Positions 18,314 to 47,124 are shown, numbered from the stretch's first letter. The stretch is DNA of 64,000 nucleotides from Fimbriimonadia bacterium (GCA_041483895.1 JBGPGO010000007.1:32001-96000), one strand, 5' to 3'. Numbers and translations: made by a program. The notes: generated by a model not told the origin, from the sequence alone.

Positions 18314-19249
18314 TCACGCCAGCTCGGACAGCAGTCGGCTCGTCCTGCCCGGCAGGTGTTCCCGTGCATCGTCGTAGATCATCAGCGTCTCCAGTTTGGA
18401 ATGGCGGCTGAGCTTCTGCGCGCCGCGCACGTCGCCGTTGGTGGCGTGGAGGTAGGCGGTGATGCTGGTGTGCCGCCACTTGTGCGGACTGAAGTTCTGG
18501 ATGCCGGCCTTCTTGGCATAGTGCTTTACCATGAACGCAAGGCCGACGCCGGTGATGCCGGATGGCTGGCCGGCGCAAGAGAGGAACAGTTCCGGTCGGC
18601 TATCGTTCCGACATGCGAGGTAGTCGCCGATCGCTTCTATGGCCTTATCGCTCAGTGTCATCAGCACCTTCTGAGTCCCTTTGCCTTTGCCACGGACGGC
18701 TAGCGTCTTCGCATCCGGATCGAAGTCGGCCTTCGTCAGATTGCAGATCTCCTGCCTGCGAAGCGCCAGTTCCCAGAACAACCGGAGGATCGCCGCATCG
18801 CGCTTCCCCTTGACGGTAAAGGTGTTCGGCAGCATGAGCATCGCGGCCGCAGCGTCCTTGTCCACGCCCCTGGTGTCTCGATACTGCATTGTCTTCTCGC
18901 CCGGCACCAGTCCCTGCGGATTGACTTCCGTCAGCCCAAGCTGCCGCGCAACGCTCAGAAGCGAGCGGATGGCCGTTAGCCGACGATTGAGGGTCACCTC
19001 CGCCACGCCTTGCTCGATCTGCTGCATCTTGAAGGTGAGCATCGCCCGAACGACGCCGGTCGTCTCAAGCTTGAAGAACGCTCCGATTGTCTGCGGCGTT
19101 GGCTCGCTCCTGGCCACGACCCGGAAGAACAGCCCTAGATCCCGCTGGTAGGCCAGCCTCGTGACTTCGCTCCGCTTGGACTTCAGAAGGAACTCCAGTG
19201 CATCCGGCGCCACCGGACTCGGTTCTGTAAGTTTGAGTTCAATTGCCAT
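18314..19249 (-). CDS. XerC-like tyrosine recombinase, copy 1
   Basis: LRRQE (R), GKGK, HKWRH, SRH and IYDD (Y); near-identical to 34568-35515. Confidence 0.93.
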   Translation of the reverse strand: MAIELKLTEPSPVAPDALEFLLKSKRSEVTRLAYQRDLGLFFRVVARSEPTPQTIGAFFKLETTGVVRAMLTFKMQQIEQGVAEVTLNRRLTAIRSLLSVARQLGLTEVNPQGLVPGEKTMQYRDTRGVDKDAAAAMLMLPNTFTVKGKRDAAILRLFWELALRRQEICNLTKADFDPDAKTLAVRGKGKGTQKVLMTLSDKAIEAIGDYLACRNDSRPELFLSCAGQPSGITGVGLAFMVKHYAKKAGIQNFSPHKWRHTSITAYLHATNGDVRGAQKLSRHSKLETLMIYDDAREHLPGRTSRLLSELA

Positions 19250-19265
19250 GGTCCTTGCCTCCTTT

Positions 19266-19293
19266 GGTATCGAAAAGGGCCATTATCGATACC
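19266..19293 (-). repeat. 28-bp recombination-site-like palindrome S1
   Basis: GGTATCGAAAA-GGGCCA-TTATCGATACC; exact reverse complement of S5; 16 nt upstream of recombinase 1 ATG. Confidence 0.85.
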
Positions 19294-19411
19294 AACACCA
19301 CATGTACTCGAGGGCTCCCACAGAAGTCCAGGCCGCGTGTAAGTGTCGATAGAAGTAAGTCGGTCGGCACGGATCGGGGGCATCCGGGGAATCCTACGCA
19401 ACAGAATGACG

Positions 19412-20737
19412 TCAAATGTCGATCTTGCTGCCAGATGTTGGCGCGATATCGAGGGCGAGTTCGATGGCCTGCTCCATTGTCAGCGCGCGTCCTTCCTGCC
19501 AGGCGGACGCGAAGGCTTCTTCGCCCAGAGCGGCGCGCGCGTCGGCGAGCTGAACGTCATGGCGGATGCGATCGTTCGGCGACAACGGTGAACCGCTTTG
19601 CACCCGCATCACCTCGACCGCGCTCCACAAACGCGCGGCCCGCGCCGCCTCCCCTTTCGAAAGCCAGAGAGCGGCAAAGGCCTGAAGCGAGTGTCCGATG
19701 AAGAAGGGGAGCCCAATTTTGCGAAGAATCGCCAAGCTCTGCTCATGCAGTTCTCTCGACGAGCCGAAGTCGCCCCGCTGTTGCGCGACGATTCCCAATT
19801 CGAGGAGCATGACCCCTATTCCCGGCCGGTCTCCAACCTCTCGCCGAATGGTCAAGCTTTCCTCAAAGAGGGCGCGCGCCGATTCGTAGTCGCCCCGTTC
19901 TTTTGCGATAATCCCTAGGTCGCCAAGCGAGTCCGCGATCCCGCGCCTGTCTCCCACCTCTCGCCGCAAGGTCAGGCTCTCTTCATAAAGCGCGAGCGCC
20001 GACTTCTGGTCGCTATGCGCTCTTGCGATGCCTCCAAGATTGTTGAGAGTGACCGCGATGCCCCGCTTGTCACCCAATTCTCGATAGAGCGACAGGCTCT
20101 CTTCATAAAATTCTCTCGCCGGCCCTAGATCGCCTTGCCGGCTGTAGGAGTTGCCCATATTGTTCAGAGAGCCGGCTATGCCCACCTCATCCCCTATCTC
20201 GCGAAAGACCGACAGGCTCTCCTCAAAGAGCGTCCGGGCTGCCCCATTGTCGTCCTGGAAGTGAGCCAAGCCGCCCGCCCCGTTCAACGCCTTCGCTCTC
20301 GCGGCCGTGCGACATCCACTTTCGTCCCCGGACAACACGATTCCGACCCGCTCGCGCCCCTCAACCAGATGCCCACGCACGGACCAGAAACGCCACAAGG
20401 CCCCAGCGAGACGCAGGGCCTCGGCGTCGTTCCGCAGCTCAAGGACTGATCTGAGGTTGTCATGATCGGACTCCAGTCGTTCCAGCCAAGCAGCCTGCTC
20501 CAGCCCCGTCAACTGCGGTTCCGCTTCCTCCGCCAGCGTCAAGTAGAAGCCACGGTGCCGGTCCCGAACGGCCTCGCCCTCGCCGCTCTCGAACAGACGA
20601 TCCCGCCCATACTGCCGCACGGTCTCCAATAGCCGATAGCGCGTCTGCCCGTTATCCTCTTCGGTCACAACGAGATTCTTGTCGACGAGGGAAGCGAGGA
20701 TTTCGCCTGCCTCGAAGGAGTCGATTGGCCCGCTCAT
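19412..20737 (-). CDS. Stand-alone winged-helix/TPR module (C-terminal half of a STAND ATPase), copy B
   Basis: Begins LASLVDKNLVV..RYRLLETVRQY; ~40-aa repeats EESL..REIGD..GIA..LNNLG; ATGA overlap with the upstream gene. Confidence 0.85.
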   Translation of the reverse strand: MSGPIDSFEAGEILASLVDKNLVVTEEDNGQTRYRLLETVRQYGRDRLFESGEGEAVRDRHRGFYLTLAEEAEPQLTGLEQAAWLERLESDHDNLRSVLELRNDAEALRLAGALWRFWSVRGHLVEGRERVGIVLSGDESGCRTAARAKALNGAGGLAHFQDDNGAARTLFEESLSVFREIGDEVGIAGSLNNMGNSYSRQGDLGPAREFYEESLSLYRELGDKRGIAVTLNNLGGIARAHSDQKSALALYEESLTLRREVGDRRGIADSLGDLGIIAKERGDYESARALFEESLTIRREVGDRPGIGVMLLELGIVAQQRGDFGSSRELHEQSLAILRKIGLPFFIGHSLQAFAALWLSKGEAARAARLWSAVEVMRVQSGSPLSPNDRIRHDVQLADARAALGEEAFASAWQEGRALTMEQAIELALDIAPTSGSKIDI

Positions 20738-22041
20738 GCCTCGTTCGCCTCTAATGCGAATTCAACAGCTTGTTCTGTCGTCATGAGGCGGCCCTCCTGC
20801 CATGCCTGGTAGAATGCGGCATCGTCTCCCATATCGGCCCGGGCTGAGCTCACGCGTCGATCGTACTTCGATATTTCGCACGGCATTAGGGGTGATCCGA
20901 TCTCTTTGCGTAGACGTTCCGACGCGCCCCAGATTTGGGCGGCTCGAGGAGGATGGGCGAGTGGCGCCAGTTGTTCCAGCGAGCCGGCGATGCCCCTCGG
21001 ATCACCAAGTTCCTGCCATATTTTCACACTCTCCTTGAGTAGCTGCTGTCCAGCAATGCGGTCATCCAGTTCTCCTGCCACAGCACCAAGGCCTTGAAGC
21101 GCATTGGCGATTGTCCGCCGGTCGCCAAGGTCCCGAGCGATGGTCAGGCTTTCAGATTGCAGCGCTTCGGACATCGAGTACTCGCCACGATGCAAGGCCA
21201 CAAACCCTAGGTTGCATAGCGCCATGGCAATACCCAACCTGTTGCCGGCTTCCCTCATGATCGCCAGGCTCTCCTGATGCATGGTCCAAGCGGTTGGGTA
21301 ATCGACCTGCTCGGTGGCCATAATGCCGAGGTTGCCCAGCGCAACAGCAACGCCATACCGGTCATCGAGTTCTCGAAAGATCGCGAGGCTCTCCTCGAAC
21401 ACGGCTCGCGCATTCAGATGATCGCCCTGTGCCTTCGCCACATTCCCGAGACTGTTCAGTGAAACGGCAACCCCGAGACGGTCGCCGAGTTCCCTCCTGA
21501 TCGCCAAGCCCTCTGCCAACAGCTCTAGAGCGGCTGTATAGTCGCCTTGCTGTGAGGCCAACGAACCGGCGCCGTTAAGCGCCAATGCACGGACCGACCC
21601 AGATTGTCCGCCCGGTTCGACAGCCAGAAGTCCGGTGAGCCAATCACGTCCTTCGCTGATATGCCCACGGATCCACCAGAATCGCCAGAGAGCACCGGCC
21701 AGCCGGAGGCCCAAATCATTTCCGTCACATTGCTCGCGGCACCATTTTAGAGCCGACCGAAGGTTGTCATGCTCTATTTCGAATCGTTCCAGCCAAACCC
21801 CCTGGTCGGGCCCCGACAACTGGGGCACGGCTTCTTCCGCAAAGGCCAGAAAGTTATCTCTGTGTTTAGTCCGCCACTCATCGCTCTCACCGGTCTCCAA
21901 CAAACGCTCTCCTGCGTACTGTCGCACGGTTTCCAACAGACGAAAGCGCGTATGTCCACCTTCCTCTTCAGTCACAACCAGATTCTTGTCGACAAACGAG
22001 CCGAGTAAGTCAAGGACTTCCCGGGTTTCTATGGCGTTCAT
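20734..22041 (-). CDS. Stand-alone winged-helix/TPR module (C-terminal half of a STAND ATPase), copy A
   Basis: Begins LLGSFVDKNLVV..RFRLLETVRQY; TPR repeats; ATG 1 nt after the upstream stop. Confidence 0.85.
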   Translation of the reverse strand: MNAIETREVLDLLGSFVDKNLVVTEEEGGHTRFRLLETVRQYAGERLLETGESDEWRTKHRDNFLAFAEEAVPQLSGPDQGVWLERFEIEHDNLRSALKWCREQCDGNDLGLRLAGALWRFWWIRGHISEGRDWLTGLLAVEPGGQSGSVRALALNGAGSLASQQGDYTAALELLAEGLAIRRELGDRLGVAVSLNSLGNVAKAQGDHLNARAVFEESLAIFRELDDRYGVAVALGNLGIMATEQVDYPTAWTMHQESLAIMREAGNRLGIAMALCNLGFVALHRGEYSMSEALQSESLTIARDLGDRRTIANALQGLGAVAGELDDRIAGQQLLKESVKIWQELGDPRGIAGSLEQLAPLAHPPRAAQIWGASERLRKEIGSPLMPCEISKYDRRVSSARADMGDDAAFYQAWQEGRLMTTEQAVEFALEANEA

Positions 22042-22042
22042 T

Positions 22043-23509
22043 TCACTCCGGATCCGAGCAGACGGATTCGGCTGCTTCGAGCGTCCAGCCGCCCGAGAAA
22101 ACGGACAGCCTACGCAACATCGTTTGTTCCTTCTCGCTCAGCAGGTCGTAGCTCCAGTCGATCAGCGCGCGCAGGGTCTGTTGTCGCGGCAGTGCGGTGC
22201 GGCTGCCGCCGGTGAGGAACCGGAAGCGGTCGTGCAGCCGATCATTGATTTCCTCCACCGAGAGCGCCCGCACCCGCGCCGCCGCAAGTTCGATTGCGAG
22301 CGGAATGCCGTCGAGATGGTGGCACAGCGAGACTAGCGCCGGCGCGTTTGCATTCGTTATCTCGAAGTCTAGGCGTGCCATGCGGGCGCGGTCGATGAAC
22401 AGTTGCGCCGATGCGAATTGCGAGAGCCGCTCGATCGTGTACGTCTGCTTCGGGTCCGGAGTCTCTAGCGAAGGGACTCGGTAGCTTTGCTCGCCCGTGA
22501 TGCCCAACGCCTCGCGGCTGCTGGCTAAGATCTTCACGCCAGGACATGAGCGAATAATTGCGTCCGCGACCTTTGCGCATTCTTCGAGCAGGTGCTCGCA
22601 GTTATCGAGCACGAGCAAGAGATTCTTTTTCTTAAGCCACTCGACCAGCGTCTGCGAAATCGATTTGCCTGGCTCTTCCTTCGCCCCCAGCACGTTTGCC
22701 ACTGCCTGCGGGACCAGATTAGGATCGCTGAGAGACGCCAATTCCACGAGCCATACTCCATCTCCGGTGCCATCCAGGAGATCGGCCGCTACCTGCACCG
22801 AGAGGCGGGTCTTTCCGCAGCCGCCGGAGCCGGTGAGCGTAACGAGGTGATTGGTTTCGACGAGACTTTTGACCTCCTCGACCGCCTTCTCGCGGCCGAT
22901 GAGCGAAGTGGTTTGTTGGGGCAGGTTGTTGGGGAGCTCGGGGTTGTTGAGTGAGCGCAATGGCGGAAAATCGTCTGGTAGATCAGGGTGTAGGAGTTGA
23001 AACACCGTCTCCAACCGCCCCAGGTCCTTCAGGCGGTGCTCGCCCAGATCTCGGAACATCACGGATTCCGGCAGGTTGTCGCGACACAGGTCGTAGGCCA
23101 CGCCAGAAACCAGGGTCTGACCGCCGTGTCCGATCGCGAGTAGCCGGGCGGTGCGGTTCAGCGGCTGGCCAAAGTAGTCCTCGTCGCGGAATTCGACTGC
23201 GCCGGTGTGCAATGCCATGCGAACTTTGATAGGTGTCCCTTCTGCCCACGGCTCCGATACCATTGCAAGCTGGGCGGCGAGAACCGCGGAGACCGCTTCC
23301 GGCGCCGTCGCGAACGCCGCGCAAAATGCGTCTCCAACTGTCTTGAAGATATGGCCCCGCGCGGCCGTTATGGCATCCCGAATCAGGGAGTCGTGACGAG
23401 CAACGGCCAGACGCATCTCTTCGGGTTGTGCCTCCCAGAGAGTTGTGCTCCCCTCGATGTCCGTGAACAAGAAGGTGACGGTACCGAAAGGAGGCTGTGC
23501 TGGGCTCAT
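22043..23509 (-). CDS. Class III adenylate/guanylate cyclase fused to NB-ARC/STAND ATPase, lacking the TPR half
   Basis: FTDIEGST, FKTVGDAF, RMALHTG, DYFGQPLNRTAR; Walker A GSGGCGKT, Walker B LLVLDNCEH, LDGIPLAIELAAAR. Confidence 0.92.
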   Translation of the reverse strand: MSPAQPPFGTVTFLFTDIEGSTTLWEAQPEEMRLAVARHDSLIRDAITAARGHIFKTVGDAFCAAFATAPEAVSAVLAAQLAMVSEPWAEGTPIKVRMALHTGAVEFRDEDYFGQPLNRTARLLAIGHGGQTLVSGVAYDLCRDNLPESVMFRDLGEHRLKDLGRLETVFQLLHPDLPDDFPPLRSLNNPELPNNLPQQTTSLIGREKAVEEVKSLVETNHLVTLTGSGGCGKTRLSVQVAADLLDGTGDGVWLVELASLSDPNLVPQAVANVLGAKEEPGKSISQTLVEWLKKKNLLLVLDNCEHLLEECAKVADAIIRSCPGVKILASSREALGITGEQSYRVPSLETPDPKQTYTIERLSQFASAQLFIDRARMARLDFEITNANAPALVSLCHHLDGIPLAIELAAARVRALSVEEINDRLHDRFRFLTGGSRTALPRQQTLRALIDWSYDLLSEKEQTMLRRLSVFSGGWTLEAAESVCSDPE

Positions 23510-23698: not shown

Positions 23699-23726
23699 CC
23701 TATCGATAACGTCCATTTTCGATAGG
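23699..23726. repeat. 28-bp site S2
   Basis: CCTATCGATAA-CGTCCA-TTTTCGATAGG; spacer is the reverse complement of the S3 spacer. Confidence 0.85.
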
Positions 23727-23764: not shown

Positions 23765-24103
23765 CTAGCTTCCAAGAAGTCGAGCGAAATCCAAGATGTC
23801 GGCAACGAGTGCGTCATCGACCGAGTCAGTACCGTGTAGAACGAAGTGGTAACGGTGTTTTGGGCCGTAGACCTCAAATCGGCGTAGAATCGGGAGCGAT
23901 CCAAGGGGTTCGCGCCATAACATGATGCCTTGATCTTGGCTGCTGGCGTACAGAAGAATCCGCCGGCCTAAGACAATCTTGGCGTTGCGATCCGTTTGCC
24001 GATGATCGACCTCGATTGCAAGTCCTTCGGCTCGAATCCCCAGAAGCAAGGTTCCTAGAGCAGCCATCCGCCGATCGACGTCTACGTGGTCAACTGATGC
24101 CAT
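23765..24103 (-). CDS. Small hypothetical protein
   Basis: Open frame filling the gap downstream of hsdR; no recognised motif. Confidence 0.35.
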   Translation of the reverse strand: MASVDHVDVDRRMAALGTLLLGIRAEGLAIEVDHRQTDRNAKIVLGRRILLYASSQDQGIMLWREPLGSLPILRRFEVYGPKHRYHFVLHGTDSVDDALVADILDFARLLGS

Positions 24104-24120
24104 TGATGCCACCCTTCCAA

Positions 24121-27100
24121 TTAAGCCACCGCCCATTCACTACTCAAAGCCTCAGCTTGCTCCAAGACAGTCTGCGTCGCTTTCTCCTGCTTATCCGGCG
24201 GGTAGCCGTACTTGCGCAGTATCCGCTTGACAATCAGCCGCAAGTGAGCGCGGACGTTCTCACGGATGGTCCAGTCGATGGTCACGTTCGCCCGGACAGC
24301 CGTTACAAGTTCCTGCGCGATTGTCCGCAGCGTATCGTCGCCCAAGACCTTGACGGCAGAATCGTTCGTCTCCAAGGCATCGTAGAAGGCCAGCTCGTCC
24401 TCGGACAGCCCCATCTTCTCACCACGCGCCTCTGCTTCGCGCAGCTCCCGCGCTAGCTTGATCAATTCTTCAATGACTTGCGCAGCCTCAATCGCCCGGT
24501 TCCGGTACTTCCGAAGCGTGTCCTCAAGCATCTCGGCAAACGAACGCGCCTCTACCACATTCTTGCGCCCGCGCCTGCCAATCTCCCCCGCCAACAGTTT
24601 TCGAAGAAGCTCAACCGCCAAGTTCCGTTGCGGCATGTTGGCGACCTCAGCCAAGAACTCATCGGACAGGATCGATATGTCCGGCTTTTCCAGACCGGCG
24701 GCGGCGAAAACGTCCATTACCCCCTCGGATGCAATTGCTCGCGAAACGATCTGCCGCACCGCATGGTCGATCTCTTCTTCCGTCCGCGCCCGATCTGGAT
24801 CACCCTTGGAAAGCGCCGCCGCGACCGCCTGGAAGAACGCTACGTCGTCTCGAATCCGTAACGCCTCAGGATGCGGCACCGAAAGCGCAAACGCCTTCGA
24901 CAGATCCCGCGCCGCGCGCACGAACCGCTCCTTCCCATCCTCTTGCGCCAAGATGTGTTCCTGCGCTCCGGGGAGAAGGCTCAGCCGCTCACTGGGAGAC
25001 TGCGACATCCATGCCGACCAGTCGAATCCATGGAACATGCCGCAGCAGATCTCGTACTTCTCCAGCATGACGGCAACCGCTTCGTCCTGATCTAGAGCCG
25101 GTGCGCCGGTCCCACCGCTCTTGGTGTAGGTGGCCAGCGCTTGTTTCAACTCATGCGCGATACCGAGATAGTCCACCACCAACCCACCGGGCTTATCTTT
25201 GAACACCCGGTTCACCCGCGCGATTGCCTGCATCAGGCCGTGCCCGCGCATCGGCTTGTCCATATACATCGTGTGCAATGACGGCGCATCGAATCCCGTC
25301 AGCCACATATCGCGCACCAGCACGATTTTGAACGGATCGTCGGGATTGCGGAATCGATTAGCGAGCTTCTCGCGACGGCCCTTGTTGCGGATATGCTCCT
25401 GCCAATCGACAGTGTCGCTTGCCGAGCCGGTCATCACGACCTTCATGGCGCCCTTATCGTCGTCCGAGTTGCCCCACTCGGGTCGCAACTTCACAAGCTC
25501 TCCGTAAAGCTCGACGGCGATTCTGCGGCTCATGCACACGATCATCGCCTTGCCTTCCATCGCGTCAAGCCGCTGCTCATAGTGCTGAACGATGTCCTCG
25601 GCGATTAGCCGGATGCGCTTCTCCGACCCAACAATGGCTTCTAGCTGCGCCCATTTCGTCTTTAGCTTTTCCTTCTGCGATATCTCCTCGCCTTCGGTTA
25701 CCTCTTCGAACTTCGGATCGATCCTGGGCCGCTCTGCTTCATCGAGTTCGAGCTTCGCCAGCCGACTCTCGTAATAGATCGGCACGGTTGCCTGGTCCTC
25801 GACCGCCTGCCGAATGTCGTAAATGCTCATGTAGTCATCGAACACCGCCCGCGTATTCTTGTCTGTCAGTTCGACCGGTGTTCCGGTAAAGCCGATAAAC
25901 GATGCATTTGGCAGTGCGTCGCGCATATGGCGGGCGAACCCATCAATGAAATCGTACTGGCTCCGGTGCGCCTCGTCCGCGATGACGACGATGTTGTGCC
26001 GGTCCGATAGGACAGGATGCTGATCGCCTTTGTCTTCCGGGAAGAACTTATGGATCGTCGTGAACACGACTCCGCCGGCATTCACCGACAGCTTCTTCCG
26101 CAGGTCAGCGCGATCGGTCGCCTGAACCGGCGGCTGGCGCAGCAGTTCCTGGCAGGCGGAAAACACCCCGAACAGCTGATCGTCAAGATCGTTCCGATCC
26201 GTCAGAACGACCAGCGTCGGATTCTCCATCGCAGCTTCAGTAATAACGCGAACGGCATAGAAAGCCATCGTTAGGCTCTTGTCGGACCCTTGCGTGTGCC
26301 AGACGACGCCAATCCGCCGATCGCCCGGTTTGCCTCCTGCCTGGTGCTTTGCCATATAGCCGCTCTTCTGCTCCCGCACAACGTCCGTCCGCAATTGCGC
26401 CGTGCGAACCGTCTCCTCTATCCCAACATTGACAGCGTGAAACTGGTGGTATCCCGCCATCTTCTTGACGATCTTGCCACCGCCCGAATCTTCGAAGACG
26501 ATGAAATGCCTGAGCATCGAAAGCAGACGGCGTTTCTCGAAAATTCCTTGGATGACAACTTGCAATTCCGGTAACCTCGAATCCGCAACGCTATCTCCCG
26601 TGATCGCCTTCCACGGCTTGAACCACTCCTTCCCGGCGCTGAGGGTGCCGACGCGCGCCTGTAAACCATCGGAGATGACGAGCAGTTCGTTGAAAGAAAA
26701 GAGCGTCGGAAGCTCGGCCTTGTAAGTCGGAATTTGGTCATATGCCGTCCAGATGGTGGCATTCTCATCGGCGGCGTTCTTCAGTTCGAAAAGAGCAATC
26801 GGCAGTCCGTTGATGAAGACGACAATATCTTGTCGTCGGGTGTGCTTATTCTCAACGACGGTGTATTGGTTAACGGCCAGCCAGTCGTTGTTATCCGGAT
26901 TGTCAAAATCTATGATCCGAGCCTGCTCCCCCTTGATCGTTCCGTCGGCTCGCTTGAATTCCACGGTGACGCCGTCCACCAACATTCTGTGCAAGGCGCG
27001 ATTTCTTGTCTCGACCGTCGTTCCTTCGCTGCGGGCAATTTTCCGAAAGGCATTCTCAATTGCATCTACCGGCAGCGACGGGTTCAAAGTGACCAGTGCT

Positions 27101-27258: not shown

Positions 27259-27273
27259 TCCTGCACCCCAATG

Positions 27274-27743: not shown

Positions 27744-27744
27744 G

Positions 27745-28698: not shown

Positions 28699-28753
28699 TA
28701 TACATCATTGGAATGGCGGCAAAACGCTCCAGTCTTACGTTTGAGACCAATTG

Positions 28754-38450: not shown

Positions 38451-38463
38451 GGGGGAAACGAGC

Positions 38464-39615
38464 ATGTATGCACTAACAGAGAAGCAAGCGTCCATCGTCG
38501 GTCAAATCCACAAGCTCGTGGAAGAAAACGTCGCTCCGCAAGCAGCCGACGTTGATCGACAAGGAAGGTTTCCGAAAGAGGCAATCGACGCGCTGGCGGC
38601 TGAGGGATTGCTGGGGTTGACGGTCCCGCAAGAATACGGAGGCATGGGTGAAGGGGTACGAGTTGCCGCCGCCGCCCTCGACGAGATCGCCCAGGGCTGC
38701 GCCTCCACCGCGATGATTTATCTGATGCACCTGTGCGGGGTCGCCTGCTACAGCGCGGCCCCGAAAGTAGCCAACGGGCAGCTTCGGGACGCCGCCAAAG
38801 GCGAGCATCTCAGCACTCTCGCTTGGAGCGAAGCAGGCTCGCGCAGCCACTTTTGGGCTCCGATCAGTCAAGCCGCGCAGAAGAACGGCCATGTGTCGCT
38901 CAATGCCAAGAAATCTTGGGTTACTTCGGCGGGGTACGCGGACGGCTACGTCGTATCCAGCCGTACCCCGGGAAGCCAAGCGCCCACCGATACCATGCTC
39001 TATCTGGTTCTAAAGGAGGATCCGGGCCTGAAAGTGGACGGCCCATGGGACGCGCTGGGAATGCGTGGAAACGCCAGCGCACCGATGATTCTTGCGGACT
39101 GCGAGGTCCCTGCAAGCCGGGCGCTCAGCGAGCCGAGCAAGGGCTTCGACTTCATGCTCTCGGTGGTTCTTCCGACGTTTCAACTCGGCAACGCGGCCAT
39201 CTGTGTCGGCATATGTGAGGCGGCGGTCGCCGCGACAACCGCCCACCTTATTGGTAAAGGCTTCGAGCACCTCAATACCAGACTCGCGGACCTGCCAAAC
39301 CTGCGCGCACGGCTTGCGCAAATGCGCATCGAGACGGATCGTGCTCGCGCACACCTTGCAAGCGCGATCAACGCCGTCGAAACCCCAGGTCCGACGACGA
39401 TGCTCATGGTTCTGGAGGTTAAGGCTGCGGCCGCGGAAAGCGCGATCACGGTAACGGACCTTGGAATGCGGGCCTGCGGCGGTGCGGCGTTCAGCAGGCA
39501 ATTGGGACTGGAGCGCAACTTCCGAGACGCGAGGGCGGCGGGTGTCATGGCTCCAACGTCGGACGTGATCCACGACTTCATCGGCAAAGCGCTCTGCGGA
39601 ATGGACCTGTTCTAG
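38464..39615 (+). CDS. Acyl-CoA dehydrogenase family protein
   Basis: GLTVPQEYGGMG, SEAGSRS, KSWVTS, LGMRGNAS, GGAAF..LERNFRDARA. Confidence 0.92.
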   Translation: MYALTEKQASIVGQIHKLVEENVAPQAADVDRQGRFPKEAIDALAAEGLLGLTVPQEYGGMGEGVRVAAAALDEIAQGCASTAMIYLMHLCGVACYSAAPKVANGQLRDAAKGEHLSTLAWSEAGSRSHFWAPISQAAQKNGHVSLNAKKSWVTSAGYADGYVVSSRTPGSQAPTDTMLYLVLKEDPGLKVDGPWDALGMRGNASAPMILADCEVPASRALSEPSKGFDFMLSVVLPTFQLGNAAICVGICEAAVAATTAHLIGKGFEHLNTRLADLPNLRARLAQMRIETDRARAHLASAINAVETPGPTTMLMVLEVKAAAAESAITVTDLGMRACGGAAFSRQLGLERNFRDARAAGVMAPTSDVIHDFIGKALCGMDLF

Positions 39616-39616
39616 A

Positions 39617-40441
39617 ATGGCGGCCCCGATCCTCGTTGGCGCGGTCGTATATGACCCCAAGGTAGTGTTGATCTGGGAAATCATCAAGGACTTCTTCGAA
39701 CAGAACGATTGCGCGATGGACACCGTGTTCTACAGCAACTATGAGTTGCAGGTCGAGTCTTTGTTGAAGAACCAAATCCATATCGCGTGGAATTCACCTC
39801 TCGCTTGGCTGGACGCCCAGCGACAATCAGGCGGGCATTGCCGTGCGATTGCCATGCGGGACACCGACCGGGACCGTGTCTCTCATATCGTCGCCCAGAA
39901 GCAAAGCGGTTTCACCAACCTTGGTGATCTTCGCGGCAAGACATTCGCCACGGGAGCGAAAGACTCTCCACAATCAACTCTTATCCCAACCGGACTGATG
40001 CAGCGGAACGGTCTGAACCCGGGAGTGGATTTCCAGGTCCGAAGATTTGATGTGCTTGTCGGAAAGCACGGGGATCACATTGGGGGGGAGCTGGACGCTT
40101 TGAAGTCCCTCCAAACCGGGGAAAGCGATGCCTGCGCTCTGCTGGACCTCAACTGGCAGAGGTGGAAGACCGACGGAACGGCCGATCCGTCGAAATTGGC
40201 CGTGATCGCGACCACCGATCGGTTCGATCACTGTGTTTTCACAGTCGGCAAGGAGTTCCCACAGGACGATCAAGAACGGTGGCTCACAGTGCTGCACGCG
40301 ATGAGCTACGACAATCCCGACCACCGCGAAATGATGGATATGGAGGGTCTTAAACAGTGGCTCCCGGGCCGGACGACACAGTTCACGGCGCTGACGGAGG
40401 CGGTGGAGAGGCAGGGCTTCTTCGAAGGGAGCTCATCATAG
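39617..40441 (+). CDS. PhnD/phosphonate-binding-fold protein without signal peptide
   Basis: IHIAWNSPLA, DLRGKTFATGAKDSPQSTLIP; no N-terminal hydrophobic leader. Confidence 0.75.
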   Translation: MAAPILVGAVVYDPKVVLIWEIIKDFFEQNDCAMDTVFYSNYELQVESLLKNQIHIAWNSPLAWLDAQRQSGGHCRAIAMRDTDRDRVSHIVAQKQSGFTNLGDLRGKTFATGAKDSPQSTLIPTGLMQRNGLNPGVDFQVRRFDVLVGKHGDHIGGELDALKSLQTGESDACALLDLNWQRWKTDGTADPSKLAVIATTDRFDHCVFTVGKEFPQDDQERWLTVLHAMSYDNPDHREMMDMEGLKQWLPGRTTQFTALTEAVERQGFFEGSSS

Positions 40442-41589
40442 AACGGTTACCTCTTTTTCCGGTCACCACAGTTGGCAGCTGGCCACGTTCGCAAGAGTTG
40501 CTCCGGGCGTTCCGGCTAAAGCAACGGGGAGAGATGAGTGCTGCCGCCTTCGATCAGATTGCCGATGTCGCAGTCCGAGAGGTTCTTAGGTTGCAAGACG
40601 AAGCGGGAGTGGACATTGTTACGGATGGAGAGCAGCGGCGCGACAACTTCTATTCGTTTGTGGCGGAGAAACTCGACGGCGTCAAGCTAATGTCCCTCGC
40701 GGAGATGCTGGACCTCGTTGATGATAAGGCAGGCTTCGAGAAGATCCTACAGACCCTCGACGTCCCCGCCTATTCCATCAAGAATCCCACCTGCGACGGC
40801 AAGATCGCTCGGCGCATGCCGCTCGCACTCGACGAATATCTATTCCTGCGCCGGCATACCGACAAGCCGATCAAAGTAACGCTTCCCGGCCCCTATCTGC
40901 TCACCCGGGCTATGTGGGTTCCCGAGGTGAGCCGAGAGTTCTATGATTCCAAGGAGGATTTGGCGGAGGATGTGGTGACAATCCTGCGGCATGAGCTGAC
41001 GGACCTCATGGATGCGGGAGCCACTTTCGTCCAGTTCGACGAGCCGGTGCTGACTGAGCTGATGTTCACGCAGGGTCAGACGCGCACGTTCATGTGCGCC
41101 GCGCTCGCGTCAAGAAACGATCCGGCGGAAGAGCTGGAATTCGCGGTTGGCCTGATCAACCGCGTCGCCGAGGGCGGTGAAGGGCTGCGGATTGGGTTGC
41201 ATGTATGCCGGGGGAACTGGAGTCGAAATGAGGAGACGCTTCTTCGAGGCTCTTACCACCCGCTCGTCTCGTACTTTGACAGGATGCACGTCCAGCAGTT
41301 CGTGCTCGAATATTCGACGCCGCGCGCCGGCGAACTGGTCGCGATTGACGGGAAGGAGATCGGCCTCGGGGTCGTCAATCCACGCACATCGGAGGTGGAG
41401 ACGGTTGATCAGATCGTCGCGAGAGTTCGAGCGGCCATGGACATTATTCCGGTGGAGCGCATGTTCCTCAATCCGGACTGCGGCTTTGGGACATTCTCCG
41501 CCCGTCCGATGAATGACACGGAGACGGCAACCCGGAAGATGAAGGCCATTGGGAGAGCCGCACAGGCATTGAGAGAGGGCGTCGCATAG
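40438..41589 (+). CDS. Cobalamin-independent methionine synthase II family protein (single-barrel MetE-like); start uncertain
   Basis: TTVGSWPR, DIVTDGEQRR, VQFDEP; Zn ligands HVC and NPDCG. Confidence 0.9.
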   Translation: MERLPLFPVTTVGSWPRSQELLRAFRLKQRGEMSAAAFDQIADVAVREVLRLQDEAGVDIVTDGEQRRDNFYSFVAEKLDGVKLMSLAEMLDLVDDKAGFEKILQTLDVPAYSIKNPTCDGKIARRMPLALDEYLFLRRHTDKPIKVTLPGPYLLTRAMWVPEVSREFYDSKEDLAEDVVTILRHELTDLMDAGATFVQFDEPVLTELMFTQGQTRTFMCAALASRNDPAEELEFAVGLINRVAEGGEGLRIGLHVCRGNWSRNEETLLRGSYHPLVSYFDRMHVQQFVLEYSTPRAGELVAIDGKEIGLGVVNPRTSEVETVDQIVARVRAAMDIIPVERMFLNPDCGFGTFSARPMNDTETATRKMKAIGRAAQALREGVA

Positions 41590-41901: not shown

Positions 41902-41929
41902 GCTATCGAAAATGTCCATTATCGATAGC
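41902..41929 (-). repeat. 28-bp site S7
   Basis: GCTATCGAAAA-TGTCCA-TTATCGATAGC. Confidence 0.85.
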
Positions 41930-42067: not shown

Positions 42068-45000
42068 CTACGGCCCCGTGTGCAACTCCGGCGAACCGGT
42101 CGCGACGAACCGAAGGAGTACGGTCGCGGACGCGTAGCTTCTGTGCTTGGGCAAACCGGCCACGTCGACGAACGATAGTTCCACCCCAACCGGCAAGCCG
42201 TGAAGTTCTTCCGGTCGCGGCCAGTTCCCGTCTTCCCGTGTGGTTCCGGAGCTCCCCGGTTTGAGCTCCAGCCGTGCGACCAGCTTTCGACTGGCGGTGT
42301 CCTTGGATCCCACGACCACCGACCACGGAAGACTCGGTGACGACAATCCCATCCACAGCTTCGGCTTGCCTTCCTGGGCCTGGAAATACTGTTCCGGGCC
42401 ATGGTCGCCCAGCCACGACAAGTTCTCGAACGTACGGAATATGTCGGTGTCTCCCGATCCGGCCCGAATGAGTTGGGTGGCTTTGAGTTGCTTGCGTGTA
42501 TTCCCAAGCCCCTGGATGCCGCCGATGACCGGAAAGTACACTTCGCCGATGGGAAGTTCCGTCGGATTGTCGATGTGCAGGGCGAACTGCACACCGTCGG
42601 GGGTCAATTCGATGGTCTCGGTAACGGTGACTGGATATTTCTTCCCAAGGTAGTTCCGCAGCGGACCCTTCCAAACGAGCGTCACCTTCGCGCCGTCGGT
42701 ATGGAATTCAGAAAGCTTCTGGCTGTTTCCGACGATCCAATTTGCTTCAATCGTCTGCCACGGCTCTTTGCCGGGAATCACGAGCGCGAAGCGATAGCTG
42801 CCCGCGAGTCTTGGTTCGCGAATCAACTCCAACCCGGACGCTTTGTCGCGCATGCGAGTGACTGCGCCGTTCGCGCGGCTGATCTCAACGAGACACTCTG
42901 CGTTTTCCAAGCGGATCGTCGATCCACGGACGGCATTCGGAATCGGTGGCGGCACTCCACGATAGGACGCCGAGAGGTCGGCCGTGTGGACGTCATCGAT
43001 GCACAGCATAGAATAGGTCGCGGCATCAGCATCGTCGACCGCTTCAACATACACTCGCTCTCCTTTATGCCCCAAACCATCTAGGAATGCGGTCACGAAC
43101 GAGGTCGTATTCGGGGCGTACACGCGGTCCAGTTCGGTGCCGTCCGCAAGCTTTAGCGCGATGGTGTTCCACTTCCGCGGCTTTCCGGAGCCTTGGATGG
43201 AGTTCCACCCGGATATCAAAAGTTGCACGCCGTCCCGGTCGAGCAGGAACGGTTTCGATCTCAGCAATCCCTTGGCCGCCTCTCCGGCTCCACCGCTCCA
43301 AGCCCAGCACTTCCCCCGCCAGCCGGAGTAGTACCCCCGGGAGTCGCGTGCGATGACCCAGGTCGGATCCGCCGTCCACCCGGCAAAGGCGCCAGTTTCG
43401 AATCCACCGTTCGCAGGGCGCTCCACCGGTCGTTGTGCCGCTGGCATCCGTGCGCCTCCGTCACGCCCCAGCTCTTCCACGAAGGCGATGCGCTCTGCCG
43501 GTACGACCACGTTCGCCGGCAATCGAAGGACGCAAGACGGTTCAAATGGGATGCGCACACGCGCCGCGCCGCGGAAGCCCGTGAGCGTCAGCGACGCGCG
43601 CCCAAGACCGCTGTTCGTGACCACGCACACCCGCCGGCCGGTCTTGCGGTTGCGGAAGACGTTCCAATCGAGCCCGCGTCCCGGTTCGCCCACAACGCTC
43701 ACGCCGCTTTTGCCAAGGATCTCGCCATAGAAGACCGTCTCTTGCAGGCTGTCGCGGATCCGCTTGACCTCGCGGATGTATCGTGCGAGCCCACGGAATG
43801 GTACCCAGGCGGGACTGTGACAGAAGTTCATCGGCGCGACCATGACAGTGTGCCCGCCCCGCACGGCGTTGTTTACGCCAAGGAAGTCGTAGGGTTGATA
43901 CAGGCCGAGAGTCTCGGTGTTCTCGGGGAAAACCTGCCTCGTGATGATCTGGTTCCCGACCCACCAGGTCGAGCCAGTGAATTGGAGCAACCGGTCCCAG
44001 TTGCACTCGAAGGACATTGCCCACTCCGGCCGGTACTTCCGGCAGGCTGCCATAACCTCTTTGGTCAGCAGGATTGCGCCTTCCCAGGTTGCGGTGTCGG
44101 GACTCAGCGGCACGTGGGGATTGTATTCGATTGCCGCCGGGAACATTTTGTCGACATGCACGCCGTCCGCGCCAATCGCGGCCAGCTTTGCGAATTGCCG
44201 GACAAGCATTTGTCGAACTTCGGGAAATCCGAGATCCAGCCAGGTCATCAGCTTTGGATGATCCATGCGCGCCCAAAGCGTCCCCATGCCCCAACCGGCC
44301 ATCCATGTGTACCCGCCGTTTGCGGTCATTTCTCGGTAATGTTCCAGTTCCTTCTTGTACCAATCCGATTCCACCATCGCCGGTTGGTAGTTCACAAAGA
44401 AGTAGACCTTGAGGCCCAATCTGTGGCAAGCGTGGATTCCTGCCTGCAGCTCCTTCCATGTCCCCAAACGAGGGTCCGGGGTGTAGTCGGGGTAGCCGTT
44501 GTCGTGGCCCCCCTTCTGCCAGCCGCTGATCTGGACGGCACGGAGCCCACACTGCTTCGCCGCTTTGGCCCATGCAGGGATATCCTTGAAGCGGAAATTG
44601 ATGGTCCCCTCGGGCAGCATAAACATCGTCATCAGGAAGAACGACTCCCGACGGATCCAACACCTTGAGGGCTGTGCAATGCCGAAAGCGTTCTTGAACC
44701 AACTGCGATATACGCGCCCTGCAGTACGCCAACCGCCGTCCACGAAGCGAAACACTGCGGAGGAGCCGTCAAAAGCGCCGCCCGGCTTCGTGAATGGGTG
44801 GTGTTCGATGCAGGCACACACGTCCATGCCGCCGCGTTCCATGAACCGGAACTGTTTGTACCGCGCGACGCGATCTTGGGAGGCGATATAGAGGGAACGG
44901 CCCGATGACTCGATGCATGCGAACGACATACACATCTGTCCGGGGTAAGCAAATGATGCGTCGGCGAACGGCAGCCTGAGGGGCTTCACCCATGGCGTCG

Positions 45001-45484
45001 ACGTCGGAATCCAGACCTCGGCGCTTCTCATTTCGTTTAGCCCGCCGATGAATGGGTAGGCCGCACTCTGCAGCGTACCCGGCCCGTGGTTTTGGACGCT
45101 CAGCCGGAATTGCAACTCACCAAGGCGGATGGTGACCATCATGCGCGCGCTCAGTGGTTGCTCTCCCCCCGCCGTGTCCTTGAGCGGCGACGCCCACCGG
45201 AGGGTGATCGTATTTCCGGTCCGCTCGCAGCTTGCAACGCGCTGGTCCTTGCCGAGGATGGAGACCGCCCCTTTCCCGGGGAGGTCAAGTACCAGACGGT
45301 AGTTCTCCGCGAGTCCGGCTGGGGCGGCGAGCACAGTACCTGCGATCTTGTCGCGAATGGCTGCGAAGACGCCGGTCTCCGGGTCGATGCTGAGCGCGAT
45401 CCTGCTGTCTTGGAGCTCGATAGGCTGAGCTACTACCCCGCAACCGGCGAAGAGTGCGAAAAGAACCGCCGCCTGCACGTGCAT
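42068..45484 (-). CDS. Large secreted putative glycoside hydrolase (DUF6259-like) with duplicated N-terminal domain
   Basis: Signal peptide; GWQKGGHDNGYPDY..PRLGT and GADGVHVD barrel motifs; NGGFETG carbohydrate-binding-like module. Confidence 0.6.
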   Translation of the reverse strand: MHVQAAVLFALFAGCGVVAQPIELQDSRIALSIDPETGVFAAIRDKIAGTVLAAPAGLAENYRLVLDLPGKGAVSILGKDQRVASCERTGNTITLRWASPLKDTAGGEQPLSARMMVTIRLGELQFRLSVQNHGPGTLQSAAYPFIGGLNEMRSAEVWIPTSTPWVKPLRLPFADASFAYPGQMCMSFACIESSGRSLYIASQDRVARYKQFRFMERGGMDVCACIEHHPFTKPGGAFDGSSAVFRFVDGGWRTAGRVYRSWFKNAFGIAQPSRCWIRRESFFLMTMFMLPEGTINFRFKDIPAWAKAAKQCGLRAVQISGWQKGGHDNGYPDYTPDPRLGTWKELQAGIHACHRLGLKVYFFVNYQPAMVESDWYKKELEHYREMTANGGYTWMAGWGMGTLWARMDHPKLMTWLDLGFPEVRQMLVRQFAKLAAIGADGVHVDKMFPAAIEYNPHVPLSPDTATWEGAILLTKEVMAACRKYRPEWAMSFECNWDRLLQFTGSTWWVGNQIITRQVFPENTETLGLYQPYDFLGVNNAVRGGHTVMVAPMNFCHSPAWVPFRGLARYIREVKRIRDSLQETVFYGEILGKSGVSVVGEPGRGLDWNVFRNRKTGRRVCVVTNSGLGRASLTLTGFRGAARVRIPFEPSCVLRLPANVVVPAERIAFVEELGRDGGARMPAAQRPVERPANGGFETGAFAGWTADPTWVIARDSRGYYSGWRGKCWAWSGGAGEAAKGLLRSKPFLLDRDGVQLLISGWNSIQGSGKPRKWNTIALKLADGTELDRVYAPNTTSFVTAFLDGLGHKGERVYVEAVDDADAATYSMLCIDDVHTADLSASYRGVPPPIPNAVRGSTIRLENAECLVEISRANGAVTRMRDKASGLELIREPRLAGSYRFALVIPGKEPWQTIEANWIVGNSQKLSEFHTDGAKVTLVWKGPLRNYLGKKYPVTVTETIELTPDGVQFALHIDNPTELPIGEVYFPVIGGIQGLGNTRKQLKATQLIRAGSGDTDIFRTFENLSWLGDHGPEQYFQAQEGKPKLWMGLSSPSLPWSVVVGSKDTASRKLVARLELKPGSSGTTREDGNWPRPEELHGLPVGVELSFVDVAGLPKHRSYASATVLLRFVATGSPELHTGP

Positions 45485-45740
45485 TTCGTCTGCCTCCCGT
45501 TCACGTCTTCACTTTGTCGCCGCATGGGTGACGTCCTTTATTCGGCCGGCGGGCGGTTAGCGCGTAGCATCCAACTGCCACGTGCGTCATGTTCCGATCT
45601 CGTTCTCAATCGTGAATTTGTTCAGTTTCTTGAAGGCCGCTCGTCCGATTCCCATAGCGATATGTGAATTATTATATAATCTTATTGAGACACAGCGCCG
45701 GGCGCAGAGAACGCCGGGCGCTCCAAGGAGAAGGCGAGAG

Positions 45741-47042
45741 ATGATTAACGGTACCGTTAGGTTTACCTTGGTATTTGCGGGGCTACTTGGATTCAGTGGC
45801 GGTCGGGCAGCGGGGCAAGTTCCCATCCCGGACCATATCGTCATCGTCATAGAAGAAAACCACAGCTACAACCAGATCATCGGCTCGGCGAGCGCACCGT
45901 TCATCAACGGCCTGAGAATTCAAGGCGCTTTGCTGACCAACTCGTATGGCATCACTCACCCGAGTCAGCCGAACTACCTCGCCCTGTTTTCGGGTTCGAC
46001 GCAAGGAGTGACCACCGACGCGACGCCGACCAACCTTCCGTTCACAACGCCCAACCTCGGCGCGCAGTTGCTTTCGGCTGGCATCACATTCGCGGGATAC
46101 TCGGAGGGAATGCCATCGGTCGGCTATACCGGCGACAGTGCCGGCGGTTCGGGGGGTTACCGTCGCAAGCACAATCCGTGGGTGAATTGGCAGCAAATCA
46201 GCGGCGCACCGCCTAATACGTTGCCGAGCTCGGTCAATCTCCCCTATGCGCTCTTTCCCAGCGATTTCACGCAGTTGCCAAGAGTCTCGTTTGTTATTCC
46301 CACGCAACTCCATGACATGCACGATGGCACCATCGCGCAAGGCGATACGTGGCTGAAAGACAATCTCAACAACTATATTCAGTGGTCGAAGACTCACAAC
46401 AGCATCTTCATCATGACTTTTGACGAAGACAACGGCTCCAGCGGTAATCGTATTGCTACCATTCTGGTCGGCCAATCGATTCTGGCGGGCGTGGCTTCTT
46501 CGCAAAGTGTCAATCACTACAACTTGCTCGCCACCTTGGAGGACATGACCGGCCTGCCCCGGATCGGCAATGCGGTAGGCGCCCAGGCGCTGACAGGGAT
46601 TTTCGCGGAAGCGCCTTACACGATCTCCGGCCACGTGACCCTTGCCGATTATTCGGGGAGCCCGGCTGGAGTGCCGTTTACTCTGTTTATCGAAAGCGGT
46701 AACAGTGTGGTGGATACACTCCCCACAACGCTCGATGCGAACGGAAACTACTCGGTCATGACAAGCCATCAGGGCACTTATGATGCGGTGGGCAAGGGTT
46801 CACACTGGCTAGGCGTTCGCCACACGGACGTGCCCATCACAGGACCACAGACGATCGACTTCGACTTATCGCTTAACGGAGATGCCGATGATGACAACGC
46901 GGTGAACCTGGACGACCTAAACCAGATATTCGTCCACTTCGCGGAGCTGAGCGTACCGAATGTCGACCTCGACGGTTCCGGGCAGGTCGACCTGATCGAC
47001 CTAACCTTCGTACTCATCAATTTCGGACTGGTGGGTGACTAG
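45741..47042 (+). CDS. Secreted acid phosphatase/phosphoesterase with dockerin-like C-terminus
   Basis: HIVIVIEENHS, THPSQPNYLALFSG, RKHNPW, HDMHDG, TFDED; C-terminal NGDADDDNAVNLDDL..DLDGSGQVDLIDL. Confidence 0.88.
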   Translation: MINGTVRFTLVFAGLLGFSGGRAAGQVPIPDHIVIVIEENHSYNQIIGSASAPFINGLRIQGALLTNSYGITHPSQPNYLALFSGSTQGVTTDATPTNLPFTTPNLGAQLLSAGITFAGYSEGMPSVGYTGDSAGGSGGYRRKHNPWVNWQQISGAPPNTLPSSVNLPYALFPSDFTQLPRVSFVIPTQLHDMHDGTIAQGDTWLKDNLNNYIQWSKTHNSIFIMTFDEDNGSSGNRIATILVGQSILAGVASSQSVNHYNLLATLEDMTGLPRIGNAVGAQALTGIFAEAPYTISGHVTLADYSGSPAGVPFTLFIESGNSVVDTLPTTLDANGNYSVMTSHQGTYDAVGKGSHWLGVRHTDVPITGPQTIDFDLSLNGDADDDNAVNLDDLNQIFVHFAELSVPNVDLDGSGQVDLIDLTFVLINFGLVGD

Positions 47043-47096
47043 CGACCCCTCCGGTCTCTGCGTTGGTAGGCCCGTGTTATCGAAAGTGTCTGAAGT

Positions 47097-47124
47097 CCTA
47101 TCATAAAGAACCATTATCGATAGG
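47097..47124 (-). repeat. 28-bp site S8
   Basis: CCTATCATAAA-GAACCA-TTATCGATAGG. Confidence 0.75.

Follow-up and report, generated by a model that had tools for sequence, protein, structure and literature searches.

Ordered dif-like sites and a candidate dedicated Xer-like recombinase in genomic islands of a Fimbriimonadia bacterium

A 64,000-nucleotide stretch of a Fimbriimonadia bacterium genome (GCA_041483895.1, JBGPGO010000007.1:32001-96000), referred to below as the window and providing the coordinates unless another contig is named, contains between positions 18,314 and 47,124 two genes for Xer-like tyrosine recombinases and a series of dispersed 28-bp dyads that separate gene modules of diverse content. 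The question raised by this locus is whether the dyads are the targets of the recombinases encoded beside them and, if so, what such an array of sites would be for. The original prediction envisaged an integron-like platform in which a dedicated recombinase captures, excises and inverts gene modules at its own sites. The reading favored here is that at least six tRNA-linked islands of this genome appear to be split by the sites into slots, that the arms of the sites and a TGG trinucleotide in their spacers are common to all islands, that the cargo of the slots is apparently unrelated from island to island, and that slots could be swapped by recombination between sites of the same spacer class. 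To this statement as a whole, covering the sites, the slots and their proposed working, we assign a probability of about 0.5. The window belongs to contig C7 of the genome, a 43-contig assembly designated G000.

Sites, recombinase and the unit they form

The window was searched with the 24-nt core of the site, allowing up to 3 mismatches, which returned 12 strand-matches corresponding to seven places (19268, 23701, 29751, 34525, 37640, 41904, and 47099); 100 dinucleotide-preserving shuffles gave a mean of 0.05 matches, and none of them reached 12. Written in one polarity, the site reads ggTATCGATAA-TGGNNN-TTTTCGATAcc, i.e., a 28-nt dyad of 11-6-11 architecture whose arms differ at one position (T vs. 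A) and which has a direction, since TGG occupies one half of the spacer. Neither the core search nor the site matrix described below found a further copy in the window beyond these seven strong sites and a relic, S4. Thus, of the eight intergenic 28-bp palindromes originally predicted, seven stand as strong dyads in the places given for them, and the eighth (30924) is a decayed remnant. The two recombinase genes and the sites are as follows.

18314..19249, minus strand: recombinase copy 1, 311 aa, Xer-like simple tyrosine recombinase
34568..35515, plus strand: recombinase copy 2, 315 aa, in which the catalytic residues R, K, H-x-x-R, H, and Y line up with their counterparts in XerD and XerA
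19266..19293, minus strand: site S1, class TGGCCC, 16 nt ahead of the ATG of recombinase copy 1 (19249, minus strand)
23699..23726, minus strand: site S2, class TGGACG, 38.5 bits, with swapped arm variants TATCGAAAA / TTATCGATA
29749..29776, plus strand: site S3, class TGGACG, 39.5 bits, inverted relative to S2; a contig of another sample spans it
30885..30950, plus strand: relic S4, remnant of a recombinase-type site with spacer TGGCGC, followed by no recombinase gene
34523-34550, plus strand (34478..34550 with its conserved upstream flank): site S5, class TGGCCC, 17 nt ahead of the ATG of recombinase copy 2 (34568)
37638..37665, minus strand: site S6, class TGGCGA, first site past the recombinase gene, in inverted polarity; a contig of another sample spans it
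41902..41929, minus strand: site S7, class TGGACA, between convergent genes; a contig of another sample spans it
47097..47124, minus strand: site S8, class TGGTTC, 40.3 bits, last site ahead of the conserved island end

The placement of S1 and S5 ahead of the two start codons is as originally described. S1 bears on its T-arm side a conserved flank (GTACATGT..TTGG) that reaches approximately position 19340. S4 (core at about 30923-30947) keeps the left arm TATCCATGA and the recombinase-type left flank (..GAGTACATGTCGT.TTGG); its right arm has decayed and it scores below 12 bits on the site matrix. Arm swapping was considered as a mark of inversion and discarded: an inversion between two standard sites leaves standard arms, and the odd arms of S2 and S3 are therefore uninformative.

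The 28-bp 11-6-11 layout with conserved inner arms is that of Xer/dif sites. With the dif site of E. coli K12 (sequence from PMC2731167), the left arm agrees at 7 of 11 positions, among them the inner ATAA, and the right arm at 4-5 of 11, so that the inner part of the site does resemble dif, contrary to what had first been noted. The absence of attC-like hairpins was correctly called: the sites are sequence-conserved duplex dyads rather than folded attC, the hairpins they could form are only those that the dyad gives, their folding energies lie between -1.3 and -10.4 kcal/mol, and S6 has no folding advantage over its shuffles. Over all 25 strong sites of the genome (see below), two positions outside the 9-mers pair in 18/25 and 17/25 cases, whereas permutations average 13.7 and 11.1 (P 0.06 and 0.009, four non-independent copies included), a weak excess. 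A reading of the dyads as terminators or promoters was also rejected, with 0 of 17 terminator-like and 1 of 11 promoter-like matches overlapping a site.

The recombinase consists of a core-binding and a catalytic domain (Phage_int_SAM_1 + Phage_integrase), and its R-K-H-R-H-Y active-site columns align with those of XerD (1a0p) and XerA (5hxy), as in simple tyrosine recombinases; we take the aligned residues to play the catalytic roles that they have in XerD and XerA. Scores against curated models fall far below the cut-offs for XerC (95-110 bits vs. 335), XerD (77-88 vs. 330), XerA (94-98 vs. 220), and XerS (58-61 vs. 267), leaving no equivalog-level match to any of these four, and there is no IntI signature (TIGR02249, 22-23 bits vs. 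265; NF011946, 19-20 bits vs. 435). The host already possesses canonical XerC/D-like genes on C14 and C13 (298-331 bits on Xer models), and the island recombinase is hence an extra one. The genome holds three intact copies, two in the window and one at C4:150749-151696, and five fragments (C1, C2, C6, and two on C11). Between the intact copies, identity is about 85% at the DNA level and about 90% at the protein level, with dS of 0.63-0.92 (0.64 between the two copies of the window, which had been thought near-identical) and dN/dS of 0.06-0.085; given these values, the copies are long-separated paralogues or relatives acquired independently, kept under strong purifying selection, and not recent duplicates. 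DNA similarity among them extends from approximately 60 nt 5′ of the ATG, site included, to the stop codon. In 4/4 copies that retain their 5′ end, the site lies 16-19 nt ahead of the ATG. Synonymous sites differ by 43-53%, yet the 28 nt of this upstream site are identical.

The association of gene and site recurs outside this genome. Among 401 sampled genomes of the phylum, 45 (counting G000 itself) have homologues of the recombinase (E <=1e-30), which are about 31-51% identical to it. The closest relative found (62% identical) comes from a Fimbriimonadales metagenome-assembled genome (MAG; locus L031), where the site GGTCACGATAG-TGGGCA-TTTGCGTGACC occupies the same place before the gene with both arms changed in a compensating manner, and where a second site of inverted polarity lies approximately 110 nt past the gene; these two are the only sites of that genome. 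The L031 recombinase frame is broken near codon 25, which may be an assembly error. Among 43 further loci (L032-L074), 25 bear exactly one site, GGTTACGTAAA-N6-TTATCGTCACC, ending approximately 8 nt before the candidate ATG (for example L045:8351-8378); their homologues are about 40% identical, nearly all cyanobacterial (L037, L040, L042-L059, L061-L064, L066), mostly from Nostocales, and several are on plasmids. In another genome of the phylum, ACTCCCGTAAA-GGCGCA-TTATCGGGAGT precedes the gene and occurs once in the genome. In a quick maximum-likelihood tree with midpoint root, the three intact G000 copies form one long-branched clade inside the family, far from the host Xer-like proteins, and the cyanobacterial homologues group with the G000 recombinase. 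Taken together, the 5′-complete copies, the Fimbriimonadales relative and the 25 site-bearing loci indicate that a recombinase gene with its own dif-like site just upstream is a unit conserved across phyla, and the earlier proposal that a dedicated, island-encoded recombinase owns the sites gains support, as the unit recurs in relatives and the site changes along with the recombinase.

The cyanobacterial dyad is thus a candidate recombination site of cyanobacterial Xer-like recombinases; a published genome-wide dif prediction failed in 5/5 cyanobacterial genomes tried (PMC3025954). The last three bases of the cyanobacterial spacers are mostly CTA and the first three vary, and two copies in one MAG differ in spacer. 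As a separate observation of conserved synteny, in eight genomes of the phylum (loci L003, L005, L010, L012, L014, L017, L022, and L023) a homologue approximately 38-47% identical directly follows a gene ending in a WVYYE-type motif, probably an ABC permease; variants read by eye from the DNA include WVYYESEQK and WVHYEAEKK, and no dyad is visible in the 110 nt upstream of those homologues.

The motif itself has a narrow distribution. It is absent from 40 genomes of the same family or order with 2 mismatches allowed, and its exact form is absent from one genome per species of GTDB and from viral contigs, the latter holding only two distant recombinase homologues (40-45% identical). One exact match on a metagenome contig (L075; 42% G+C, no recombinase) falls in the promoter region of unrelated genes and was dismissed as chance or unrelated. 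Three findings, namely the conservation of the gene together with its site, the matching changes of both arms in the relative and the selection acting on the site, make it highly probable in our view that the 28-bp dyads are targets of this recombinase.

Spacer classes, slots and cargo across the genome

A position matrix built from the sites and run over the whole genome, with the reversed sequence as control, found 25 sites of >=37 bits, six of 21-28.5 bits and four of 13-18 bits; the control gave three matches, the highest at 14.4 bits. The original statement that no copy lies outside the island consequently holds for the window only: 18 further strong sites exist on C1, C2, C4, C6, and C11. 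The strong sites form clusters on C1, C2 (two clusters), C4, C6, C7 (the window), and C11. In the stretches scanned, tRNA genes were found on C1 (His), C2 (Lys and Glu-TTC), C4 (Glu-CTC), C7 (Asn), and C11 (Arg). The distance between tRNA gene and sites varies, the tRNA-Glu of C4 lying approximately 11.6 kb from the nearest strong site; the C1 cluster at 186.8-195 kb has only tRNA-Ala/Ile, approximately 11 kb off, and no tRNA gene was found in the stretch scanned around the single site of C6.

On a crude map of longest open reading frames (ORFs), 21 of the 25 strong sites fall outside ORFs. Two of the four others are in 5′ extensions with a likelier start downstream (ribosome-binding site plus signal peptide); of the remaining two, one falls in an extended ORF call of a recombinase gene and one in an ORF that runs antisense to a recombinase fragment. 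Convergent gene pairs flank four sites (C1:186802, C2:56727, C4:158642, and S7). One of the six matches of intermediate score, a 17-nt exact match to the left arm and spacer at C9:80614-80637, encodes I-I-D-T-G of a subtilase-like gene and was set aside as a coding coincidence.

This distribution bears on whether the dyads are merely operators, bound by a repressor (the recombinase acting as a DNA-binding protein, or another island regulator) with no recombination involved. The placement of the site, 16-19 nt ahead of the recombinase ATG in this genome and approximately 8 nt ahead of it in the 25 cyanobacterial loci, would fit autoregulation, and one promoter-like match does overlap S2. The location of four strong sites between convergent genes, a promoter-like match at only 1 of 5 strong sites in the scanned stretch, the retention of all catalytic residues under dN/dS of 0.06-0.085, and the spacer classes and site polarity, which would have no role, all speak against it. 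The 0/40 count in relatives, together with the convergent placements, also removes the lineage-wide operator, a finding of which would have refuted the original prediction. A purely regulatory function thus seems very improbable.

The variable spacer bases of the 25 strong sites take up 8 of 64 possible triplets: CGA (7 sites), TTC (5), CCC (4), ACG (4), ACA (2), TTG (1), TTA (1), and CTG (1). Along the direction of the recombinase gene, the classes follow the order ACG(+) - CCC(+) - recombinase - CGA(-) - ACA(-) - TTC/TTG/TTA(-) - CTG(-), after which comes a conserved end composed of small genes and a ParB-N/N6_N4 methyltransferase; that of the window contig (C7:80274-81540) has 81% DNA identity to its counterpart in the C4 island and 66% to that of the C11 island. 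A single linear class order accommodates all eight arrays (8/8); when orders were randomized within arrays, this was so in 106 of 200000 trials. In 5/5 islands where a site follows a recombinase 3′ end, whether of an intact gene or of a fragment, the first such site is an inverted CGA. The A-type arm of each site faces the recombinase gene and the TGG half points away from it, which makes the arrangement mirrored. The arrays are kin, so that the class order reflects retention and not independent origin; the identity of spacers across islands that are near synonymous saturation is nevertheless hard to explain unless like sites must match.

Three side observations concern the sites. The motif GCAGCAAT (up to 1 mismatch) occurs 16-17 nt left of the T-arm, on the TGG side, in 7 of 27 sites and on the other side in none, against a background rate of 1.9% per 40-mer (examples: window 41946-41953, minus strand; C11:112237, 123284, and 133051); it may serve the TTC/TTG/TTA, CTG, and ACA classes as an accessory element. 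On C1 (positions 36001 and 36312), a weak ACA-like site (17.9 bits, little above the control maximum of 14.4) lies 288 nt past a strong CGA site, with the same polarity and in the usual class order, and may mark an empty slot. Finally, a degenerate TTG-class site at C12:64964 (24 bits) has as its neighbor a segment (C12:65478-65625) with 75% identity to window 47598-47748, the 3′-terminal part of the 179-aa gene next after S8, and this region is probably another decayed island end.

The contents of the slots differ from island to island. In BLASTN and TBLASTX comparisons, only three features show clear homology (>=60%) between islands, namely the recombinase, the methyltransferase and the small genes of the island end. 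Other TBLASTX matches between cargo are short and 22-51% identical; they look weak or paralogous, and the remaining cargo appears unrelated. The only clear cargo paralogy between islands is that of two giant repeat proteins (C11:115290-122912, 2540 aa, and C1:186922-192702, 1926 aa), 24-54% identical. The flanks of the seven CGA sites are unrelated on both sides, and where C11:133047-133547 resembles C11:112233-112729 (82% identity), the homology stops 4 nt past the site. The fit between sites and gene units is well seen on C4, where the interval from TTC to CGA contains kdpA, kdpB, kdpC, an OmpL-like porin gene, kdpD, kdpE and a 145-aa ORF without family match, the set (C4:139969-149199; L080:970-10199) being separated from the sites by gaps of 183 and 34 nt. 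The gene content of the slots, the intergenic placement of the sites and this kdp interval uphold the earlier claim that the sites mark module boundaries, and the modules, bounded by dif-like sites and arranged in arrays, have the form of a dif-module island. That cargo turnover occurred at the sites is, on balance, probable.

One other origin of such arrays deserves weighing here, namely the serial integration of circular elements carrying one site each, as with Xer-exploiting elements or tandem tRNA islands, the arrays being leftover, mostly inactive junctions and the classes being lineages of elements. Such accretion would leave same-polarity runs of sites of the kind observed, and it agrees with the proximity of the islands to tRNA genes, with the two head-to-head units and internal att copy of the window, with the two or three units in a row on C11, each ending in a backbone fragment, and with the truncation of many recombinase copies. 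Circle integration, however, gives direct repeats only, whereas in C7, C4, and C11 the sites on the two sides of each recombinase gene have mirrored polarity; a single class order despite different cargo is unexpected if each cassette brought its own site; and the class spacers are identical across islands whose recombinase genes have diverged at synonymous sites to the extent given above. We therefore regard accretion as unlikely and retain exchangeable slots as the preferred reading.

The other features of the window, which show what the slots hold, are the following.

2107..2182, plus strand: tRNA-Asn(GTT), island anchor; its last 45 nt recur inverted at 29526-29570
2439..3638, plus strand: classical phage-type integrase (PF00589, 102 bits; Phage_int_SAM_3), adjoining the tRNA gene and of a family different from that of the site-linked recombinase
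19412..23509, minus strand: cargo S1-S2, a cyclase-STAND NTPase gene and two TPR genes
23765..29464, minus strand: cargo S2-S3, an intact HsdR gene, a PIN-like gene, two genes of no assigned family and a C-terminal HsdS fragment
29526..29570, minus strand: copy of the tRNA-Asn 3′ end (att remnant), exact over 45 nt, inverted, 180 nt from S3 and beside the HsdS tail and HsdR
29782..30812, minus strand: SIR2-like gene split over two frames, matched only at profile positions of about 300-360; a probable pseudogene
31235..34180, minus strand: cargo S4-S5, a 981-aa protein with a malectin domain
35617..37542, minus strand: cargo after recombinase copy 2, a 641-aa protein without family match
37920..41589, plus strand: cargo S6-S7, a four-gene operon (OsmC-like, acyl-CoA dehydrogenase, phosphonate-type binding protein, MetE-like)
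42068..47042, both strands: cargo S7-S8, a 1138-aa DUF6259 protein (minus) and a 486-aa phosphoesterase (plus)
47205..49567, both strands: island end, two small genes of no known family and then a ParB-N/N6_N4 DNA methyltransferase (48275-49567, minus)

These gene and module calls agree broadly with those first made (cyclase-STAND, TPR, HsdR, PIN-like, SIR2 fragment, malectin, operon, DUF6259, phosphoesterase). HsdM was not found in the S2-S3 cargo, which, with only the tail of HsdS, therefore amounts to a truncated type I restriction-modification system. A binding protein gene and two permease genes (14755-18124) lie after recombinase copy 1. Core genes (oxoacid:ferredoxin oxidoreductase, Nuo) begin at 50077, past the island end. 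Defining the island borders by synteny with two genomes of the same family was abandoned, the core protein being 57-58% identical and the tRNA-Asn and oxidoreductase genes being on separate contigs.

Possible traces of recombination and the proposed working

Several arrangements are suggestive of past events at the sites. Two hybrid sites, C11:100276 and S4, have the left flank of a recombinase-type site but a spacer of CGA or CGC, and no recombinase gene follows them. At C11:100276, the layout is flank, site, reversed cargo, and reversed recombinase fragment, which is what an inversion of a recombinase-plus-cargo segment would leave. In the window, the inverted 45-nt tRNA-Asn copy lies inside both inverted pairs of the same class, S2/S3 (ACG) and S1/S5 (CCC). 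An attR generated by the neighboring integrase should be a direct repeat, and one inversion at a same-class pair would explain the inverted copy; this is suggestive of a past inversion between such a pair and not proof of it.

These traces raise the possibility of an inversion system of the shufflon or Hin type, in which the recombinase would flip segments between sites of opposite polarity, reordering cargo or switching genes. The polarity mirrored around the recombinase gene is in line with this, as are the minimal unit of the Fimbriimonadales MAG (a recombinase gene between two inverted sites), the inverted att copy inside S2/S3 and S1/S5, and the layout at C11:100276. Opposite-polarity neighbors, however, differ in spacer (CCC vs. 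CGA), which should make full exchange between them inefficient; free inversion would scramble the class order, which instead persists from island to island; and in 4 of 5 islands the next gene has the same direction as the recombinase gene it follows, with no consistent promoter-switch logic. Inversion as the main function of the sites accordingly seems quite unlikely.

In the preferred reading, slot exchange, the sequence of steps would be as follows. Two recombinase monomers would bind each dyad. Sites of the same class on two related copies of an island, present on a sister chromosome or on an incoming copy, could then complete both strand exchanges, and recombination at two different classes would swap the intervening slot. 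Sites of different classes within one island, having only TGG in common, would seldom recombine, which would keep the array from deleting itself. The same-class inverted pairs (S1/S5 and S2/S3) could invert the DNA between them, and binding of the recombinase at the gene-proximal site would probably also regulate the recombinase gene itself. Same-class slot exchange as the mechanism is put forward tentatively, the odds being somewhat against it. More speculative still is the view that the whole is a natural heterospecific-site cassette exchange, with ordered class-specific sites, its own Xer-like recombinase, and slots swappable without collapse of the array.

A number of points weigh against this reading. 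On the one hand, the material is decayed and its rearrangement is not directly seen. Five of the eight recombinase copies are truncated, HsdR is present without HsdM and with only the tail of HsdS, and SIR2 is split, and the system may be largely fossil. Of the 23 public sediment-metagenome runs that contain part of the stretch, four were compared, yielding short contigs (longest listed pieces 0.3-1.7 kb); across S3, S6, and S7 these contain the reference junctions alone, at S5 they are interrupted, and no recombination product was seen in them. The joints listed in the compared runs have sides of 20-39 nt, none at a site, and say nothing for or against rearrangement. No cargo module occurs twice in this genome, with or without sites, so that the mobility of any module is unproven, and the slot after the recombinase has the recombinase stop codon, not a site, as one of its borders. 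On the other hand, the order of the classes can arise from common descent alone, the arrays being kin, and the minus-polarity part taken by itself is fitted by 5559 of 200000 random orders (2.8%). With dS of 0.6-0.9 the islands are old, and the cargo may have turned over in other ways and the sites have been selected for another reason. The arrays are known from this one genome, in its 43-contig assembly; multi-site arrays occur only there, and relatives have one or two sites.

Comparison with known systems

The closest known kind of element is the dif-module island of Acinetobacter, whose chromosomal examples are described in PMC12907356. The dif/pdif modules consist, as here, of one to several genes bounded by 28-bp 11-6-11 sites and form linear chromosomal arrays; the host XerC/XerD are held to act on them, whereas the islands described here encode their own single recombinase of another family, whose site changes along with it in a relative. 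The XerC/D-like proteins of the host may act on the present sites as well. The present arrays differ further by their spacer classes, fixed order and mirrored polarity, by a host that is not a proteobacterium, with the nearest relative of the recombinase in a Fimbriimonadales MAG, and by the fact that the same module is not found in different contexts within the genome.

XerS/difSL and XerH/difH resemble the unit described here in that the recombinase gene stands beside its own 11-6-11 target as one genetic module (PMC2731167). Near-palindromic arms, which the three have in common, fit the action of a single protein. Those systems, however, have one site per chromosome and serve dimer resolution, whereas 25 strong sites are spread here over at least six islands, which departs from the one site per replicon of Xer/dif systems, where that site lies at the terminus and acts with FtsK; the recombinase, moreover, lies below the XerS cut-off, and the host has separate XerC/D-like genes. 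The 'Cyan' simple tyrosine recombinases (Smyshlyaev et al., 2021; PMC8138268) likewise possess a core-binding and a catalytic domain and are Xer-related; an Xer-replacing role has been suggested for this subgroup, and the part of PMC8138268 accessible to us describes no linked site. The recombinase studied here and its nearest homologues outside its own phylum, which are cyanobacterial, may belong with them. The conserved gene-plus-site unit points to a candidate site for cyanobacterial Xer-like recombinases.

Integrons also place a recombinase gene beside a primary site and separate cargo by an array of sites. Here, in contrast, there is neither an IntI signature nor a folded attC, and the site is upstream of the gene on the same strand; integron cassettes are mostly single promoterless ORFs in one orientation, whereas the present modules comprise 1-6 genes on either strand; and spacer classes in a fixed order do not fit capture at one attI. 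The integron-like platform of the original prediction is therefore not retained.

The design brought to mind by these features is that of cassette exchange with heterospecific lox or FRT variants, in which the arms are common, the spacers differ, only like pairs recombine and a segment is swapped without deletion. That exchange is an engineered laboratory method; its counterpart here is suggested by the class structure. To our knowledge, no natural system of heterospecific-spacer cassette exchange has been recognized, and within the open-access literature searched, no paper dealt with ordered heterospecific sites served by a dedicated Xer-like recombinase, or with the cyanobacterial site. Should the proposed working be true, it would constitute a third route of modular gene exchange, beside integrons and host-Xer dif modules, and would account for the turnover of operon-sized cargo (defense genes, glycosidases, a kdp set, and metabolic operons) in a little-studied phylum. 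If the spacers restrict the choice of partners, the islands would be ordered, self-stable arrays of exchangeable slots, the design known from the engineered variants, and a recombinase with eight naturally orthogonal site classes would be a candidate tool for genome engineering. What appears to be new next to these systems is the combination of eight spacer classes, one order, a polarity mirrored around the recombinase, and unrelated cargo between the sites.

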